DNA from: Eubacteriales bacterium
GTDB lineage: Bacteria > Bacillota > Clostridia > Oscillospirales > CAG-272
DNA: 64,000 nt
Direction: 5' to 3'
NCBI GenBank assembly: GCA_041655935.1
Contig: JBBAEK010000006.1
Location: 3,390-67,389 of the forward strand
The notes under the pieces are model-generated. The model was not told the origin of the DNA. It saw only the letters and a list, made by a program, of their open reading frames with translations, and searched no databases. Made by a program: the position numbers and the translations under genes. Positions 17,219 to 25,046 of the stretch are shown piece after piece (the stretch's first letter is position 1; each line of letters starts with the position of its first letter).

Positions 17219-17923
17219 TCATCGAAAGGGCTGCATGTCCTCCGCAAACACCCCCGTGCGGCAGATGGTGTGTCCCTGCGCTGCTCCCTCCGCAATGCCG
17301 CACGCGCTTTTCAGCGCTCCGAGCACATATTCCGGGTTGAGGAAGGAGGCCTGCTGTGCCGACAGCACCAATCGCAACGCCAGACAGTCCGCCGCGGGAT
17401 CGTATCGGCACGCCGCTTCTTTAATCTGCGGCCTGATATTGCTTTCCCGCTCCCCGCTCTTGGTTTTTTTCAGCACCATAATGACCGGGGAGGCCAAAAA
17501 ATCCTGACAGGCAGCCGCCAGCCCGTCGCTCGCCCCGTCGGTGAACACCTGTACCTCATAGCCTATCCAGGCCAGCGCGCTGAGCTTGGTCTCGGGGACA
17601 TACAGCTCGGTCACGGCCATGTGTACGGGCAAGTTCTCCCGCAGCGCCGCCACCGCCCTTTCCGGGTCAACCGGGCGGGTCAGGCGCACATCCACTAGCT
17701 CGCACTCACTGCTCACCCCCACCGACAGGGGCGCCGCCACCGAAATTTTGGGGATGGGGTTGTACCCCATCGAGTACCACAGGGGCAGACCCGCGCGCAC
17801 CAGCGCCTTTTGCAGGGTGCGCAAAAAATCCAAGTGTGAGATGAATTGCAGCGGCCCCGCCTTGCGCATGCGCAGCCGCACCCAAACCGGCGTTTGCGCC
17901 CCTCCGTTCATGCTCGGCACCAT
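17219..17923 (-). CDS. Radical-SAM-linked protein (TIGR03936/DUF2344 family)
   Basis: The sequence RKAGPLQFISHLDFLRTLQKALVRAGLPLWYSMGYNPIPKISVAAPL is present. The gene overlaps the 3' end of the upstream radical SAM gene. Confidence 0.85.
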   Translation of the reverse strand: MVPSMNGGAQTPVWVRLRMRKAGPLQFISHLDFLRTLQKALVRAGLPLWYSMGYNPIPKISVAAPLSVGVSSECELVDVRLTRPVDPERAVAALRENLPVHMAVTELYVPETKLSALAWIGYEVQVFTDGASDGLAAACQDFLASPVIMVLKKTKSGERESNIRPQIKEAACRYDPAADCLALRLVLSAQQASFLNPEYVLGALKSACGIAEGAAQGHTICRTGVFAEDMQPFR

Positions 17924-19761
17924 CGTCCCTCACCTCCCAAGCAGTTGGCCCCGCAACCGCTGCATTGCTCCGCGCAGTTCGGCGTGGGCCGGGCGGCATA
18001 GGCCCGCTCCCGCTCCCGCCACAGAAACGCTTTGCTCACCCCGCAGTCAATCATATCCCAAGGAAGGGTCTCGTCCTTCTCCATCACGCGGTTGGCATAA
18101 AAGGTCGGGTCTATGCCGCAACGGCGAAAGACCTCCATCCATTTGTCAAAATCAAAGCACTCGTCCCATGCGTCAAAGAAAAGCCCCTCGCGGCAGGCCG
18201 TCGCCAGTGCCGGCGCCAGCCGCCTGTCCCCCCGGGCAAAGACCGCCTCCAGGTGAGAGGCCCGGGCGTCGTGCCAGTGGTAGCGCACCTGTCGGTTGGT
18301 GATCTCCCCGCGCAGAAACTGCTGTTTTTCCTCCAGAGTGCCCAGCGGGTCCTGCCCGTCCCACTGAAAAGGGGTAAAGGGTTTGGGGATGAAGCAGGAG
18401 ACGCTCACCGTCACATTGAGCCCGCGGCTCCGCTGCTCTTTGGGAATCGCGCGGTAGGTCTCGGTCACCTTGTCGGCCAGGCGGGCAATGCCCCGCAAGT
18501 CCTCCTGCCCCTCGGTGGGCAGCCCTTGCATAAAGTAGAGCTTCACCGAGCTTTTCCCGTTTCGGAAGGCAATGTCCACCGCCCGCACCAGGTCCGCCTC
18601 GGTGATATTCTTATTGATCACATCCCGCAGCCGCTGGGTGCCCGCCTCCGGGGCAAATGTCAGACCCCCCTGACGAACAGAGGAGACACGCTCCATCAGC
18701 TCCTGGCTGAAGCTGTCCAGCCGCAGGGAGGGCAGCGACAGCCCCACATGGGCGTCGTCGGTCCATGTCAGCAACAGTCGGGTCAGCTCGTCCAGTTTTG
18801 AGTAGTCGCTGATGCTCAGCGACACCAGGGACACCTCGTCATAGCCCGTGTTTTCATAGAGGCACCTGGCTTGCCGCGCCAGGGTCTCGGGTTTTTTTTC
18901 ACGGTTCGGGCGGCACACCATTCCCGCCTGACAGAACCGACAGCCGCGAATACAGCCGCGATTGACCTCCACGACCACGCGGTCATGCACGGTTTCGATA
19001 TAGGGCAGCACAAAGTGGGTGGGAAAGGGAGCGCTGTCAAGATCAGCCACAATTCTTTTTCTGACTTTGGCCGGCACATCGCCGTATCGGGGCACAATCC
19101 CTGCCACCCGACCGTCCTCCCGGTAGCTCACCTCATACAGGGAGGGCACATACATCCCCCCGATCTTGGCGGCCTCACGCAAAAAGCCCTGCTTGGTATA
19201 GCCCCCCGCCTCTTTCATGCGGATATACAGCCGGCAAAGCTCCGGCAGCGACTCCTCCGCCTCGCCGATGGCAAACACATCAAAAAAGTCGGCCACCGGC
19301 TCGGCATTATAGGCACAGGGCCCGCCCCCGATGATCAAGGGGGCGCTCTCGTCCCGCTCCGCGGCATAAAGGGGAATCCCCGCCAGGTCCAGCATATGCA
19401 GCGCGGTGGTGTAGCACAGTTCGTACTGCAAGGAAAACCCCACCATCTCAAACGCCGTCAGCTGCTCTCCGCTTTCCATCGTACACAGGGGGATGCCGTG
19501 CGCCCGCATGGCACGGTCCATATCGAGCCACGGGGCATAGGCCCGCTCGCAGGCAATGTCCTCGGCACGGTTCAGCACATCGTACAGGATGCGCACCCCT
19601 AAGTTGGACATGCCGATTTCATACGTATCCGGGAAGCAGAGGGCAAATCGTAACTTGACCGCCGCGCTGTCTTTTTGGACCTGCCCGTATTCGGCACCGA
19701 TGTACCGCCCCGGCTTGCTCACGGTCTTGAGTAGGGTATCTATGCGCTGTTGATGGGTCAT
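17908..19761 (-). CDS. B12-binding-domain radical SAM protein (TIGR03960 family)
   Basis: The N-terminus is SKPGRYIGAEYGQV. The radical SAM cluster is CIRGCRFCQAG. An ATGA overlap joins it to the upstream gene. Confidence 0.9.
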   Translation of the reverse strand: MTHQQRIDTLLKTVSKPGRYIGAEYGQVQKDSAAVKLRFALCFPDTYEIGMSNLGVRILYDVLNRAEDIACERAYAPWLDMDRAMRAHGIPLCTMESGEQLTAFEMVGFSLQYELCYTTALHMLDLAGIPLYAAERDESAPLIIGGGPCAYNAEPVADFFDVFAIGEAEESLPELCRLYIRMKEAGGYTKQGFLREAAKIGGMYVPSLYEVSYREDGRVAGIVPRYGDVPAKVRKRIVADLDSAPFPTHFVLPYIETVHDRVVVEVNRGCIRGCRFCQAGMVCRPNREKKPETLARQARCLYENTGYDEVSLVSLSISDYSKLDELTRLLLTWTDDAHVGLSLPSLRLDSFSQELMERVSSVRQGGLTFAPEAGTQRLRDVINKNITEADLVRAVDIAFRNGKSSVKLYFMQGLPTEGQEDLRGIARLADKVTETYRAIPKEQRSRGLNVTVSVSCFIPKPFTPFQWDGQDPLGTLEEKQQFLRGEITNRQVRYHWHDARASHLEAVFARGDRRLAPALATACREGLFFDAWDECFDFDKWMEVFRRCGIDPTFYANRVMEKDETLPWDMIDCGVSKAFLWRERERAYAARPTPNCAEQCSGCGANCLGGEGRWCRA

Positions 19762-22652
19762 GTGAGTTCTTTTCCAATCTTGTGTTTCATCATCGCCGCC
19801 TCAATGAACAGCAGCGGCGGTACCAGCGAAGCCACTTGGCAAACGACTGCCGGCAGTGCATACGCGGTAAAGGAGGGCACGAAGGCGGCGAGCAACACGC
19901 CCAGCCCGCCTGCCAGAATCGTGAGGATGACCGACAGATATCGCAGGCGTTTTTGCGTGGTCCGGTAGCCCTTGAAGAGCAACGCCGCATGGTACAGATC
20001 CCGCACCCTGCCGCCACGGCTGAACAGTCCGGTGCGGCACCCGCCGCCCGAGGGGTTCTCTCCGTCGGCTGTCTGCCGATGCAACAGACCAATGCGGCAC
20101 ACGCTGAGATAGGTCAGCCTGTCCAGCAGCTTTTCGGTCATATTGGGGTCCGCCGTTTTGAGGACGGGGTAGATATGTTGCTTGTCCAGTTGTTCCGCAT
20201 ACTTCACAAATCCCGCCCGGATGCCGTAGGCCAGGTACAGCTTGGCACAGGGCTGCCCCTCGACGGCGGTGAACATGATGCGGACATCCCCCCGCTCAAT
20301 CTGTCCCTCGTCGTCCGAGTCATAGTAGAAATTGATTCCCTTGCGCTCCATATAGGTCCCGCGCCCCGCCAAAAAGGCGACCCCGTCAATCACGGCGGCC
20401 AGCCCGTCCTCCGCCACTTCACTGACCAGGACCGCGGGCGGGTTCGGAGTGTCCGTGCGGAACACCCCCTGCAGAGGCCCCCCCACCTCGCCAAAGAGGG
20501 CGGACAGGTACCCCATCACTTTATCCAGCCGGTTTTCACCGCACAGCTTGATTTTTCGCACCTGTACCTGCTCGATGGGAAAGGCGTCGGTGTCCGCAAA
20601 GGTCATCACACCCACCCGGGCATACTCTCTCACCGCCCGCTCCCCCGCCACAGTCAGCCCGTGCTTGGCGAGCAAACGGCGCAGCCGTGCAAAGGTGTAC
20701 CGATGCAGAAAGGCGGCGGACAGGGGCAGCGCCATCAGACAGGTGCTCAGCCCGCGATGCAGGGCGCTCAGTACCCCGCCGTCCGCAAACCACGCGACCA
20801 CCGCCGCGGAGGCAGCCATCACCAACGCGACAATCAGGGGAAAGCGAAGCTGCTGCCACTCGTCATAGCGCACATTGAGCTGGGCCAGAAAACCGCTGTC
20901 CTGCTCGGTACGCGGCTGTGTCTGTATGAGCACCTTAGCAGAGGCCTCCTCGCCCTGTTGCAGACCCGGATACTCCTTGGTACTCCCCAGGGTGGCGCAC
21001 AGCCCTTCCTTTTGCGCCAGCCAATCGGTGGCACTTTGGTACACCCCCCGCACAGACAGCAGCTCAAAGCAGGCCGGGACCAGGAGCAACAGTGCCGCCG
21101 GCAAGCCATAATACACCGCATGCCCCACATGCGCAAAATACTGGTACAGTGTCATGGCACTGCTCAGGCACAAGCCGCACCAGGCCGGCGCCCAGATATC
21201 AACCAATCCTCGCCCCAGACGGCGCAGCGAGCGGTAGAGCGGCCGCCAGGCCACTCCCGCCGCTATCAGGAGAAGCTGCAGGTCAAACAGCAACCACACG
21301 CCACCTACCCGCGCGAGTCCCATCCGCGCCGGCAGGCCCTGCCGCCAGGCGGGCAGGTAGGTCAACAAGACGAGCAGTACGCACAGCGCGCCCTGCACGA
21401 TCAGCCCCACCAGCCGGCGGCGGCACTCTTTTCGCAACTTTTCAAGCCCCGCCTGCGGGTCCTGCTCGTCAAAGTATGCCTCGTCGGCGGGCAATCGCTG
21501 CCGCTTTTGCACCCGCTGAATGGCGGCGCGCCGCTTGTCGCGCCCGGCATCCCTGCCCTCGCGTCCGCTCGACCCTTTGTCGCGCCCGGCTGCCCCTTTT
21601 TTGACCCCGTTTTCTTTATTTTTGTCCGGCGTGTCCGTGCGTTGCAGGGTCTCCAGCCGGCTCATATCCACCTCGGTAAAGGTGCCCTCCCCATGTTCCC
21701 CTCGGACGGACGGCACCGTCTCGGTCACCGAGGCGAAATCCTGCAGACCTGGCGCGGGCGGACTGACCTCAATTGCCTCTATCGTCCCCGTCTTCGCCGG
21801 GTCGTCTCCGGCAGCCTTGGCAGGCTCCGCGGACTGAAACAGGAACAGTCGTCCCTTCCTTTTCCCCAAAGCCTCGCTATACGCGGGCATCGCCGGGGCA
21901 CTCTCCGCCGCAGTCTCCGTTGTGGTAGCCTTTGCCGGGGGGCTCTCCACCCGGTCACTCTCCGCCGGGACAGTTTCTGCCGGGGCGGCCTCCGCCGGGG
22001 CGCTCTTTGTGCGGGCACTCTCCACCCGGGCACTCTCCGCCGAAGTGCTGTCCTCCGTCCGCCGCTTCAGCTGCGGAGCGACGGACGCGCCCTCTCCCTG
22101 CCGGGAAAGGGGTCCCCTTGCCTGCCCTTGATTTTCATGTTCGGCCGCCGCCGGGTGCACCTCCCGCACAGCGGCTTTTTGCGCCACAGCAGCGCCCGCC
22201 GGCAGCTTGTCCCTTGCCGCCGTAGCCGTCGCTCCCTGCTCGTTTGGCTCCGTCACCGCAGCCCCCGCCTGTCGAGCGGCAGAGGTAAAGGGGGCGACCC
22301 TCTCAGGCGCACCCCTGTCCGGCGCCCTGCGGGTGTCCGATAGCACCGCTTCCTGCTCGGAGGGCACCGCCATTCCATCCTGTGCGGCCTGCCGCTCCGA
22401 CGGAGTAGCCTGTCCCTTGACCCCTGCCGCTTGTCGGCCGGACGGTGCCGCACGATGCTCGCCCGTGTCTTTGCTCGGCTTGGCGGATGACTCCTGCTCG
22501 GCTTGGTGCAGGATCTGCTGCACATCCACCCCCTCCGCCGCCCCCTGCTCGTCCGTGCGCGTGGCGTCGGCGTTGAGGTTGGCCTTGAGACGTGTCAACA
22601 AGTCCCTGATATACTCTTTTTCCTGTTGATTGATGCGCTCTTGATCGGCCAT
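19758..22652 (-). CDS. P1B-type ATPase homolog with degenerate catalytic motifs and a long disordered Ala/Pro/Glu/Arg-rich N-terminal region
   Basis: An RBS (GAAGGAGGG) precedes the ATG at 22652. About 430 aa of low-complexity sequence come first, then TM helices. The segment LAKHGLTVAGERAVREYARVGVMTFADTDAFP is colinear with the canonical A(e/k)xGiLiKggeale...vvFDKTGTLT. LKTADPNMT aligns with mlTGDnxxTA, and TADGENPSGG aligns with vGDGINDAPA. Confidence 0.7.
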   Translation of the reverse strand: MADQERINQQEKEYIRDLLTRLKANLNADATRTDEQGAAEGVDVQQILHQAEQESSAKPSKDTGEHRAAPSGRQAAGVKGQATPSERQAAQDGMAVPSEQEAVLSDTRRAPDRGAPERVAPFTSAARQAGAAVTEPNEQGATATAARDKLPAGAAVAQKAAVREVHPAAAEHENQGQARGPLSRQGEGASVAPQLKRRTEDSTSAESARVESARTKSAPAEAAPAETVPAESDRVESPPAKATTTETAAESAPAMPAYSEALGKRKGRLFLFQSAEPAKAAGDDPAKTGTIEAIEVSPPAPGLQDFASVTETVPSVRGEHGEGTFTEVDMSRLETLQRTDTPDKNKENGVKKGAAGRDKGSSGREGRDAGRDKRRAAIQRVQKRQRLPADEAYFDEQDPQAGLEKLRKECRRRLVGLIVQGALCVLLVLLTYLPAWRQGLPARMGLARVGGVWLLFDLQLLLIAAGVAWRPLYRSLRRLGRGLVDIWAPAWCGLCLSSAMTLYQYFAHVGHAVYYGLPAALLLLVPACFELLSVRGVYQSATDWLAQKEGLCATLGSTKEYPGLQQGEEASAKVLIQTQPRTEQDSGFLAQLNVRYDEWQQLRFPLIVALVMAASAAVVAWFADGGVLSALHRGLSTCLMALPLSAAFLHRYTFARLRRLLAKHGLTVAGERAVREYARVGVMTFADTDAFPIEQVQVRKIKLCGENRLDKVMGYLSALFGEVGGPLQGVFRTDTPNPPAVLVSEVAEDGLAAVIDGVAFLAGRGTYMERKGINFYYDSDDEGQIERGDVRIMFTAVEGQPCAKLYLAYGIRAGFVKYAEQLDKQHIYPVLKTADPNMTEKLLDRLTYLSVCRIGLLHRQTADGENPSGGGCRTGLFSRGGRVRDLYHAALLFKGYRTTQKRLRYLSVILTILAGGLGVLLAAFVPSFTAYALPAVVCQVASLVPPLLFIEAAMMKHKIGKELT

Positions 22653-22675
22653 CGGAGTCCCTCCTTCAAAATCGT

Positions 22676-23695
22676 CTACTGACCCTTGCGTTGCCTTGCC
22701 GCCTCACACAAAATCACCGCGGCGGCACTCGATACATTGAGAGAGTTGATTTTCCCATACAGTGGGATGCTCACTGAAAAATCGCATTTTTCCCTCACCA
22801 GGCGGGAGATGCCCGCCCCCTCGCTGCCAAGCACGATGGCGGCGGGACCGCGCAGATCGACACGATGGTAGGGCTCCCCGTCCATATCGGCGGCATAAAT
22901 CCACAACCCCTGTTCTTTCAGGGTGTCGAGGGCAACGGCAAGATTGGTGACTCTGGCCACCGGCAGGTGCGCGAGCGCACCGGCGGAAGCGCGCGCCACC
23001 GCCGACGTCAGCCCGACAGCCCGCCGCTTGGGGATCACCACGCCATGCGCCCCGGCACACTCCGCGGAGCGAATGAGCGCTCCTAAGTTGTGCGGGTCCT
23101 CAATGCCGTCCGCCACCACCAGCAAGGGCGCTTCCCCCAAGGCCGCCGCCCGGTCCAGCATCTCCTGTAGCGACACATAGTTCTGTTCGGCCACCATGCC
23201 CACAATGCCTTGGTGGTTTCTGTGCCCGCACAGCAACTCCAGCCTCGCCCGCTCCACCTCTATGATGGGGACTTTCAGGGCGGCGATGTCCTGCAGTAAC
23301 CGTACCAGTCCGCCGTCCCGATCCCCTTTGGCCACAAACACTTTGTCAATGTCCCGCCCGGCTTTCAGCATTTCCCGTAGCGCATTTCGCCCGGCAATCA
23401 GACTCTCGCTCGGCGAGTCCCCCTCTGCCTCAGGCATCACGCCCTGACGGGTCAATGTCTCCCCCGACAGTTCGGAAGCCGTCACCGGAGCCCCCCGCCG
23501 CTCGGTCTCGGCACCCCGCCGTTCGCCTCCGACGGCCCGCCGCTCGTTCCCGGCGCCCCGCGCCGGAAAACGCCCATCCGTCCGACCGGCAGGCACCTTT
23601 TTGGTGCCTTGCTGCACCATCCCGGCGCCCCGCGCCGCAGATTTCTCATTCACCCGCCCGGCAACCGTCGTCTTTTTTCCGTTTTCCTCGTGCAT
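22676..23695 (-). CDS. rlmB: 23S rRNA (guanosine-2'-O)-methyltransferase RlmB (SpoU/TrmH family) with an Arg/Gly-rich N-terminal extension
   Basis: The sequences IAGRNALREMLKAGRDIDKVFV, EDPHNLGALIRSAECAGAHGVVIP, IVLGSEGAGISRLV and INSLNVSSAAAVILCE are present. The start is taken at MHEENGKK (ATG at 23695), which follows GGAAAGGG. Confidence 0.85.
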   Translation of the reverse strand: MHEENGKKTTVAGRVNEKSAARGAGMVQQGTKKVPAGRTDGRFPARGAGNERRAVGGERRGAETERRGAPVTASELSGETLTRQGVMPEAEGDSPSESLIAGRNALREMLKAGRDIDKVFVAKGDRDGGLVRLLQDIAALKVPIIEVERARLELLCGHRNHQGIVGMVAEQNYVSLQEMLDRAAALGEAPLLVVADGIEDPHNLGALIRSAECAGAHGVVIPKRRAVGLTSAVARASAGALAHLPVARVTNLAVALDTLKEQGLWIYAADMDGEPYHRVDLRGPAAIVLGSEGAGISRLVREKCDFSVSIPLYGKINSLNVSSAAAVILCEAARQRKGQ

Positions 23696-23800
23696 ATTCA
23701 GCCCTTTCCGGCGTTTGCCGCGGCAAAGCGGCTCTCTTTGATTCACAATTCCCTTGATAATATGTTACGATCAAAACGCTTCTCTTGCCATGGCACCTTG

Positions 23801-24068: not shown

Positions 24069-24341
24069 TTAGTTTCTCTTTGCTGCGTAGCATTCGCTGC
24101 AGTAAACCGCTTTGCCTTCGGTCGGATTGAAGGGCACTTTGCATTCCTTGCCACAATCGGCGCAAATGGCATCAAACATCTCCCGCGCGCCTCTTGTTGC
24201 CTGCTTCCTGCTGTCGCGACAAACCTTGCATCTCTGGGGCTCGTTTTGGAAACCCTTCTCTGCATAGAATTCCTGCTCACCTGCTGTGAACACGAAATCG
24301 CTGCCGCAATCCTTGCACTTCATTGTCTTGTCCTGAAACAT
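24069..24341 (-). CDS. Small zinc-ribbon protein (two CxxC pairs twice)
   Basis: The sequence is MFQDKTMKCKDCGSDFVFTAGEQEFYAEKGFQNEPQRCKVCR...CADCGKECKVPFNPTEGKAVYCSECY. I trimmed the start to the ATG at 24341, which follows GAGG with a 9-nt spacer. Confidence 0.75.
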   Translation of the reverse strand: MFQDKTMKCKDCGSDFVFTAGEQEFYAEKGFQNEPQRCKVCRDSRKQATRGAREMFDAICADCGKECKVPFNPTEGKAVYCSECYAAKRN

Positions 24342-24458
24342 CTGCACTACCTCGCTTAAAATGGTTAAAAATTTTGCCCTTAGACGGATTCCAACCGACA
24401 CCTTTGATAACAACGCTCTCCCTTAAGCTACTGGGGCATATAGACATTTTAATTAAGA

Positions 24459-25046
24459 TCACTGAATTTTTCGGCGCAATTTCATGGTGGCTCTGCCAAG
24501 CGCATTGCTGACCGATTTGACACTTTTGCCCGCCTCTTTCGCAATTTGCCGGAGTGGCATGGCATCGACATATCGCTCAAACACGTACATTTCATACTTT
24601 GACAGTACCTGTTTGATACGCTCGTAAAGTGCATCGGCAGCTTCAGAATCAATTAATTTTTTCAAAACATCATCGCAGTTGCCCGCGCTGATATAACTGT
24701 CCAGTTGGCCCTTCTCGTTCAGTTCGTCAAGGGAAACGCAATCAGGGGAAGCGGAACGCCTACGCACAAAGTGCGAGATCAATGCATGGTTGATGCAGAT
24801 TTTCGCATACAAACCAAAGGTCGGATCGGCAGATTCCATACGGTAAGACAGGGCCGCCCGATACAAAGCGCGCCTGCCTTCCTGCAACACTTCCTGTCGG
24901 TCGGCGTACGGACACCGTACCAAACAAGCGCTGACGCAGGCAGTGAGCAGCGGTTCATACTGACAAAGAAGCCGTTCAAATGAAATTTGGTCTCCCTTTT
25001 TGACCGCTCGGATGAGGGCTTGGAGGTCTGCATTTGTATGATTCAT
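24459..25046 (-). CDS. Sigma-70 family RNA polymerase sigma factor (SigH-like size and layout)
   Basis: Region 2 reads EVLQEGRRALYRAALSY...FGLYAKICINHALISHF. The region 4 HTH reads MPLRQIAKEAGKSVKSVSNALGRATMKLRR. Confidence 0.85.
   Translation of the reverse strand: MNHTNADLQALIRAVKKGDQISFERLLCQYEPLLTACVSACLVRCPYADRQEVLQEGRRALYRAALSYRMESADPTFGLYAKICINHALISHFVRRRSASPDCVSLDELNEKGQLDSYISAGNCDDVLKKLIDSEAADALYERIKQVLSKYEMYVFERYVDAMPLRQIAKEAGKSVKSVSNALGRATMKLRRKIQ

Follow-up and report, generated by a model that had tools for sequence, protein, structure and literature searches.

The question raised by this locus is whether a gene that reads like a metal pump with its catalytic motifs erased is a pump in decay, or a protein maintained for some other purpose. 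The gene (hereafter gene X) occupies positions 19758–22652, stop codon included, on the minus strand of a 64,000-nucleotide stretch of DNA (the window) from an Eubacteriales bacterium of the GTDB order Oscillospirales, CAG-272 (NCBI GenBank assembly GCA_041655935.1, contig JBBAEK010000006.1, positions 3,390 to 67,389), and is an uninterrupted open reading frame of 964 codons. An original prediction, made from the DNA letters alone, had described its 964-aa product as a P-type ATPase homologue with a degenerate active site. Few membrane enzymes have been studied as thoroughly as P-type ATPases, and to our knowledge hardly any pseudoenzyme derivatives of them have been described. Based on its translation, profile searches, and Foldseek and hhalign comparisons, we identify the product of gene X as a catalytically dead derivative of the heavy-metal (P1B) class. 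Our preferred explanation, to which we assign a probability of roughly 0.55, is that this dead derivative of a CopA-type pump is anchored in the membrane and acts there as a scaffold or adaptor without catalytic activity.

Searched as a single sequence, the protein gave no meaningful match in Pfam, NCBIfam or the PDB, and no relative was recovered when related loci were searched with that one protein. When the C-terminal 534 aa were used in an exhaustive phmmer search, 1,317 cluster representatives (clusters at 50% identity) were detected, 630 of them at E ≤1e-10, and nearly all were 800–1,100 aa long and matched within the C-terminal half. A profile of 63 aligned full-length members (alignment A1, from which the column counts below are taken) matched CopA of Legionella (3rfu) at E = 2.6e-14, colinearly from transmembrane (TM) helices M3/M4 through the phosphorylation (P) and nucleotide-binding (N) domains to the TGD residues, and further matched the cadmium pump CadA (7qbz, E = 2e-5) and ATP7B (E = 4.5e-3). 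When the family was aligned by hhalign with the CopA encoded in the same genome, 534 columns were colinear from helix MA to M5 (98.6% probability, E = 8.7e-16).

The predicted structure points the same way. An AlphaFold2 model built from alignment A1 had predicted local distance difference test (pLDDT) scores above 90 over approximately residues 365–960, and the top 50 Foldseek matches to it in the PDB were all P-type ATPases, with CopA 4bbj as the best (E = 2.8e-16, probability 1.0, ~700 aligned columns), followed by ATP7B, HMA4, KdpB and ZntA. Both Foldseek and hhalign recover the general P-type ATPase architecture (M1–M6 core plus P and N domains), while the two extra helices of the P1B class, MA and MB, are covered by alignments that span residues 399–480 against CopA, with the helices of the model in agreement. 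Because the family profile, hhalign and Foldseek agree, homology to the P1B class, closest to the CopA type, is established, and the evidence supports a P1B homologue in which the fold was kept and the chemistry lost. The original prediction had placed the colinear region in the C-terminal ~530 aa, and the three approaches bear this out over ~570 aa; an absence of P-type ATPase homology from profile searches, which it had named as grounds for abandoning the idea, is the opposite of what the profile and fold searches returned.

It had also proposed a Pfam search with the E1-E2_ATPase and Hydrolase models alongside a structure prediction. The latter gave the P-type ATPase fold just described, with CopA as best match, but the former gave nothing: PF00122 and PF00702 did not match gene X at E up to 1, or any of 46 members at E up to 0.1, and a Pfam scan of the 8 longest members found no P-type ATPase model and no additional domain. 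As every member falls short of the Pfam P-type ATPase models, the family is in effect without annotation, and none of the database clusters checked carried a name for it. PF00122 detects five other genes of this genome and not gene X. The 1.76-Mb genome holds five canonical P-type ATPases, all with an intact DKTGT (contig positions C2:99341-99880, C42:825-1427, C2:54588-55124, C16:8855-9394 and C1:140809-141441), one of which sits in an unusually long 1,180-aa open frame.

We then compared the elements of a working pump with their counterparts in the family (all positions that follow are on the minus strand). All eight membrane helices are present, as placed by the AlphaFold2 helices, the CopA alignments and column statistics: MA (residues 399–432), MB (452–480, with a conserved DLQLL), M1 (488–507) and M2 (516–546) at 21015–21458; M3 (600–624) and M4 (627–663) at 20664–20855; and M5 (883–924) and M6 (932–956) at 19785–20006. 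The metal ligands of these helices are absent. Both cysteines of the CPC motif in M4 are gone, and column statistics show no equivalents of the YN or MxxSS copper ligands in M5 and M6. The original prediction was right that CPC is lost, but its reading of the site as ALP is one residue off, as the true equivalent is L642-P643-L644 (20721–20729), where only the proline is conserved (P643 in 59/63 members) and the flanks are hydrophobic. Other polar positions in the membrane are conserved: MB has D457 and Q459, M2 has an acidic residue at 530, and M6 has Q939.

Between M2 and M3, only a remnant of the actuator (A) domain was found (residues 547–599, 20856–21014). It comprises ~53 aa with two strands and a short helix (E550–557, E574–580 and H587–592 by DSSP) and no TGES, and ~100 residues of CopA, TGES included, align opposite gaps in this region by hhalign. 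No Pfam match to an HMA (CxxC) metal-binding domain was obtained in gene X, where the N-terminus consists instead of a helix and a disordered arm.

The cytosolic headpiece (residues 664–882, 20007–20663), delimited by profile alignments and column statistics, consists of a partial P-domain and the N-domain. At the DKTGT position the protein reads ADTDA (residues 686–690, 20583–20597), and at the TGDN position TADPN (residues 833–837, 20142–20156), both as the original prediction had it and both placed identically by two independent profile alignments. The column of the phosphorylated Asp, which is A686 in gene X, holds mostly other residues across the family (E30, D10, A8, P3, R3, T3; n = 63). 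Profile alignments also place VGGPL (residues 723–727, 20472–20486) at the SEHPL position, and this replacement is nearly invariant (G724, G725, P726 and L727 in at least 60/63 members, with V or I at 723), so that the nucleotide-binding His and Glu are gone. In the N-domain, the first Gly of the GxG motif is replaced by E or D and the Asn of the GN motif by K or R. With its nucleotide-site residues replaced in this way, the protein is predicted to have lost nucleotide binding.

The GDGxND motif had been read as ADGEN within TADGENPSGG, a reading that did not survive alignment. In the hhalign alignment the family has a gap opposite the GDGxND segment of CopA, and ADGEN sits in a non-conserved loop (columns 862–873), so the resemblance is a chance match to a segment that has been deleted. 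Across the family, neither DKTGT nor GDGxND was found in any of 157 representatives or 88 genomic orthologues; orthologues with an intact DKTGT, which would have pointed to a strain-specific pseudogene, were thus searched for and not encountered. The deletion of the actuator domain and the change from SEHPL to VGGPL had both been overlooked. Since the actuator, the phosphorylation loop, the magnesium site, the metal ligands and the residues of the nucleotide site are all missing, the Post-Albers cycle should have no means of running, and we firmly infer that the protein is unable to complete a pump cycle.

In place of the catalytic motifs, the family has conserved residues of its own. An Asp occupies the Lys position of DKTGT (D687) in 62/63 members and position 689 is acidic in 59/63, while A803, K804, Y806, Y809, T833, D835 and P836 are present in 63/63. 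Further family-specific positions are G670-E671, F691-P692, K702, D710, G750, G763, D778/D781, the strand A803-K804-x-Y806-x-x-Y809, F815, Q939 and P945. This conservation implies that a remodelled site or surface is still constrained, and it raises an alternative in which D687, the acidic residue at 689, T833, D835 and K804 would form a retained ligand site for a divalent cation or a phosphorylated ligand, making the protein a sensor, an unorthodox enzyme or a transporter. The positions in question are near-invariant among nearer members, D687-x-[D/E]689 resembles motif I of the HAD superfamily, T833 matches its motif II, K804 is a candidate for the Lys of its motif III, and the polar membrane residues persist. 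However, both alignments and the secondary structure of the model put D687 at the Lys position of DKTGT, one residue past the nucleophile; HAD motif IV is deleted, as are the actuator domain and the magnesium-binding GDGxND segment; other residues have taken the place of those in the nucleotide site (VGGPL, GxG Gly to E/D, GN Asn to K/R); and the P1B metal ligands are all gone. On balance we consider a retained ligand site quite unlikely.

Loss of catalysis could also reflect loss of the gene, and we assessed selection on orthologue pairs 65%–90% identical by the Nei-Gojobori method. The ratio of nonsynonymous to synonymous substitution rates (dN/dS) was 0.055–0.19 in the core and 0.14–0.30 in the arm (closest orthologue pair: dN 0.056, dS 1.02); these values are rough because dS is near saturation, and are still far below 1. 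Nearly all genomes carry the gene with an unbroken reading frame, and the family profile detected it in 151/151 genomes, a sample drawn from 94 genera and 27 families of the order, mostly at E <1e-40. Gene X is maintained under purifying selection and is not decaying, which agrees with the earlier view of it as functional. A pseudogene, whether decaying or strain-specific, or a P-type ATPase resemblance that arose by chance, might be suspected from the absence of single-sequence matches in Pfam, NCBIfam and the PDB and from the very fast divergence of the protein, which is only 25%–33% identical within one genus and has tree branches several times longer than those of the pumps. Given the intact frame, the low dN/dS, the universal presence in the order, and profile, hhalign and Foldseek statistics of 1e-14 to 1e-16, this reading is ruled out as vanishingly improbable.

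Outside the order, the profile found only pumps. Among 115 genomes of other orders in the class, best matches (E 1e-6 to 1e-19) were partial and fell in ~800–850-aa open reading frames, and they correspond to canonical CopA pumps, on which scale the genome's own CopA scores 1e-11. As every sampled genome within the order carries the gene and only canonical pumps match outside it, gene X is a core gene restricted to one order. It is single-copy in this order, whose members are Clostridia abundant in the gut and rumen and for the most part uncultured, and its named relatives are uncultured gut or rumen metagenome-assembled genomes labelled Clostridia, Eubacteriales, Oscillospiraceae and similar. 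Gene X represents a large family of non-catalytic derivatives of P1B ATPases that is new and unannotated.

The N-terminal part of the protein is largely missing from public annotation, in which the gene call at this locus (P0002) is a 710-aa product that begins at an internal Met. A strong Shine-Dalgarno sequence, GAAGGAGG (22660–22667, minus strand), precedes the ATG at 22652 by 7 nt, and the first ~30 residues match the extreme N-terminus of homologues sharing only 20%–35% identity. Because of this Shine-Dalgarno sequence and the conserved N-terminal motif, we take the long start at 22652 to be correct, in which case the public call is, as judged from these signals, 254 residues too short. 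The conserved tip is an amphipathic helix at residues 9–36 (22545–22628, minus strand; EKEYIRDLLTRLKANLNAD; pLDDT 85–89), with a widely conserved family motif of about sA[DE]ELLxxLkxN[LI] that is present in nearly all representatives listed.

Behind the tip lies an arm (residues 37–357, 21582–22544, minus strand) that is predicted to be disordered from its pLDDT of <50. It is rich in Ala, Glu, Gly and Pro and weakly acidic (net charge −8). Arms across the family have a median length of 303 aa (range 0–667) and are usually strongly acidic (medians: 27% D+E, net charge −55), and the weak acidity of the arm in the window probably reflects the 63%–70% GC content of the region. The original prediction had described a disordered, repeat-bearing N-terminus rich in Ala, Pro and Glu. 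Disorder holds for residues ~37–357 and the arm is indeed Ala-rich, but repeats are modest (Tandem Repeats Finder reported one degenerate 15-nt array of 2.9 copies at 21960–22002), and the weak acidity of this arm is unlike the strongly acidic arms of most relatives.

Taken together, it is very probable that gene X encodes a dead pump maintained for a new role. With P1B-1 pumps (Legionella pneumophila CopA in 3RFU and 4BBJ, ATP7B, HMA4 and the genome's own CopA), the protein shares the colinear eight-helix core and the CPC proline in M4; in the headpiece it also shares the fold of the N-domain, the first half of the P-domain and two residues of TGDN (T and D). It has none of their HMA domain, actuator with TGES, CPC cysteines, DKTGT, SEHPL His, GDGxND or M5/M6 ligands, and gene X alone has gained the long disordered arm and its conserved tip. 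In the proposed course of events, a CopA-type (P1B-1) copper-exporting ATPase would have kept its membrane core (MA, MB, M1–M6) and a headpiece of part of the P-domain and the N-domain; would have lost the elements just named (in the case of the actuator, most of it; in those of DKTGT and GDGxND, the phosphorylation loop and the magnesium-binding segment); and would have gained an acidic loop ([E/D/x]-D-x-[E/D]-A-F-P), the AKxYxxY strand, TxDPN, and a ~300-aa arm ending in the amphipathic helix.

The dead pump body could then serve as a membrane anchor and binding surface, and the arm would bring its conserved tip either to a partner in the cytosol or to the headpiece of the same protein. In functional P-type ATPases (P1B, P2B and P3A), the headpiece is where the regulatory termini dock. 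A rigid eight-helix anchor, a headpiece with an acidic pocket, and a flexible arm that carries the conserved tip together suggest the architecture of an adaptor, and a tether is favored by the succession of a conserved tip and an arm variable in length and composition, and by the lack of additional domains in the longest members. That the protein works as a scaffold or tether is nonetheless a tentative proposal, to which we give somewhat less than even odds.

Several observations weigh against the scaffold explanation. The tip and arm are not indispensable, since forms of ~550–575 aa without either, natural minimal versions of the protein, occur in one family (f5; e.g., G022, G049, G071 and G089). 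The family motifs are looser in the most distant families, with GGPL in 54/88 genomic orthologues, a cation site or an unorthodox phosphoryl site might be built from the invariant D687, the acidic 689, T833, D835 and K804, and the phosphorylated-Asp column is D or E in 40/63 members. Any binding partner of such a scaffold is putative.

We turned to the gene neighborhood for candidate partners. Directly upstream of gene X lies rlmB, encoding the 23S rRNA Gm2251 2'-O-methyltransferase (22676–23746, minus strand; TIGR00186 at 6e-68), with the ATG of gene X (22652) 23 nt past the rlmB stop codon. Downstream, the TGA of gene X overlaps, as ATGA, the ATG of a B12-binding radical SAM (rSAM) gene (TIGR03960 at 8.8e-272; 17908–19761, minus strand), which is followed by a radical-SAM-associated gene at the end of the local operon (TIGR03936/DUF2344 by Pfam and NCBIfam matches; 17219–17923, minus strand). 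No convincing terminator was found between the local genes. Reading of the open frames and the NCBIfam matches confirm that an intact gene X is set between rlmB and the TIGR03960/TIGR03936 pair with an ATGA overlap, as originally described. Of the two ties this arrangement implies, the link to rlmB is conserved (directly upstream of gene X in 19/20 other families of the order, often overlapping or a few bases apart) but that to the rSAM pair is lineage-specific, with no rSAM gene found within 7 kb of gene X in the same comparison (0/20). The conserved partner of gene X in the genome is thus rlmB and not the rSAM pair.

These data bear directly on the idea that gene X is a functional partner of the rSAM pair, for example its membrane anchor. 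Translational coupling through the ATGA overlap in the window speaks for it, as does the placement of gene X directly upstream of rSAM in 60/80 rSAM-anchored loci, including relatives in which gene X is only 23%–25% identical. Against this stand the absence of rSAM near gene X in 20/20 other families, about a dozen rSAM loci that have full upstream flanks and no gene X, and a far slower evolution of rSAM (61%–66% identical in the relatives where gene X is 23%–25% identical), which does not suggest coevolution. On this phyletic pattern the partnership is largely rejected, and we regard it as highly unlikely. No literature was found on TIGR03960 or DUF2344.

A more specific version of the scaffold explanation has gene X tethering or regulating RlmB, or late 50S assembly, at the membrane. 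Besides the position of rlmB in the window and in 19/20 other families, genes after gene X are often translation-related (assigned by eye as EF-G-like in ~7 families, and as YebC or MetRS in others, with shikimate kinase also seen in this position), and gene X occupies the slot after rlmB that is held by yacP (Rae1) in Bacillus. Neither a fusion of RlmB with gene X nor an extra domain was found in the members scanned, however, and the N-terminal extension of RlmB does not covary with the arm of gene X in charge and length (Spearman rho −0.08, p 0.5; 79 loci). In addition, an intact CopA follows rlmB in another order, so the linkage may be inherited from a pump unrelated to RlmB. A membrane tether for RlmB or 50S assembly is therefore unlikely, in our estimation.

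Other features of the neighborhood are recorded here for reference. The RlmB extension is ~100 aa and Arg/Gly-rich (23400–23746), and an extension of at least 40 aa occurs in 27/79 related loci. The genes after gene X in loci L114, L118 and L123–L127 encode 663–694 aa, of which those in L124 and L127 look like EF-G-type GTPases and the others are so assigned from length. Just upstream of rlmB lie genes for a SigH-like sigma factor, whose best NCBIfam matches are SigH models below their cut-offs, and for a CxxC-x17-CxxC zinc-finger protein (24069–25046), and the order of this pair is kept in relatives where gene X is only 23%–35% identical.

In Bacillus subtilis, the gene that follows rlmB is yacP. 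YacP (Rae1, an NYN ribonuclease) is a soluble ribosome-associated nuclease, and is a positional analogue of gene X only, located after rlmB and near a SigH-like sigma gene, with no sequence or fold relationship. A small NYN_YacP gene is absent from this genome, and an NYN_YacP domain was seen inside ~860–900-aa open frames in 9/31 relatives.

The slot after rlmB also bears on where gene X came from. In two genera of a family belonging to a neighboring order (f56), an intact CopA of 730–743 aa with a single HMA domain lies directly after rlmB (L131 3068–6054 in G198 and L134 2611–5696 in G285). Unlike gene X, these pumps have fully canonical motifs (CxxC, CPC, DKTGT, TGES, TGDN and GDGIND). Sampled CopA genes were not adjacent to rlmB in 16 other families. 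The rlmB-linked CopAs are the canonical pumps closest to the gene X profile by hhalign (E 5e-19 to 6e-20, versus 4e-17 to 3e-14 for other CopAs). In an unconstrained maximum likelihood (ML) tree, gene X sequences form a monophyletic group (support 100) whose stem measures 2.28 changes per site and whose sister is the CopA clade; the rlmB-linked CopAs branch first within that clade and not with gene X. A tree forced to join the two had a slightly higher likelihood (lnL +2.5) and was not rejected (p-AU 0.55), a test limited by long-branch effects. Given the same slot, the closest profile match and the joined tree that was not rejected, it is plausible that gene X arose in place from an rlmB-linked copA, and the rlmB-linked intact CopA of f56 may represent the ancestral state.

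Precedents for such reuse are few among the sources consulted. Apicomplexan guanylate cyclases carry a P-type-ATPase-like domain that is apparently reused outside ordinary pumping (bioRxiv 10.1101/475848); unlike gene X, these proteins come from eukaryotes, include cyclase domains fused to the ATPase-like part and are far larger. The PcrP/PA2803 subfamily of Pseudomonas aeruginosa is a HAD-superfamily protein reported to act non-catalytically (PMC12632274), with no pump ancestry and an unrelated context. No bacterial P-type ATPase pseudoenzyme was found in the literature searched, and in a 2023 review of P-type ATPase enigmas, the terms searched did not turn up pseudo-pumps or degenerate forms.

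Gene X shows a pump stripped of its actuator, phosphorylation loop and metal sites while its core and headpiece were reused, and the intact CopA that follows rlmB in f56 is a possible living "before" state. For annotation pipelines, the implication is to avoid both the "metal pump" label and the 710-aa truncation. One speculative and rather doubtful extension is a new class of bacterial membrane adaptor, made from a dead copper pump, born in place from an rlmB-linked copA, and using its long arm and tip to recruit RlmB, the nascent 50S or other translation machinery to the membrane throughout an order of gut Clostridia. Once assigned, the role of gene X would give a function to a universal gene of the order, and could reveal that rRNA modification is connected with the membrane.

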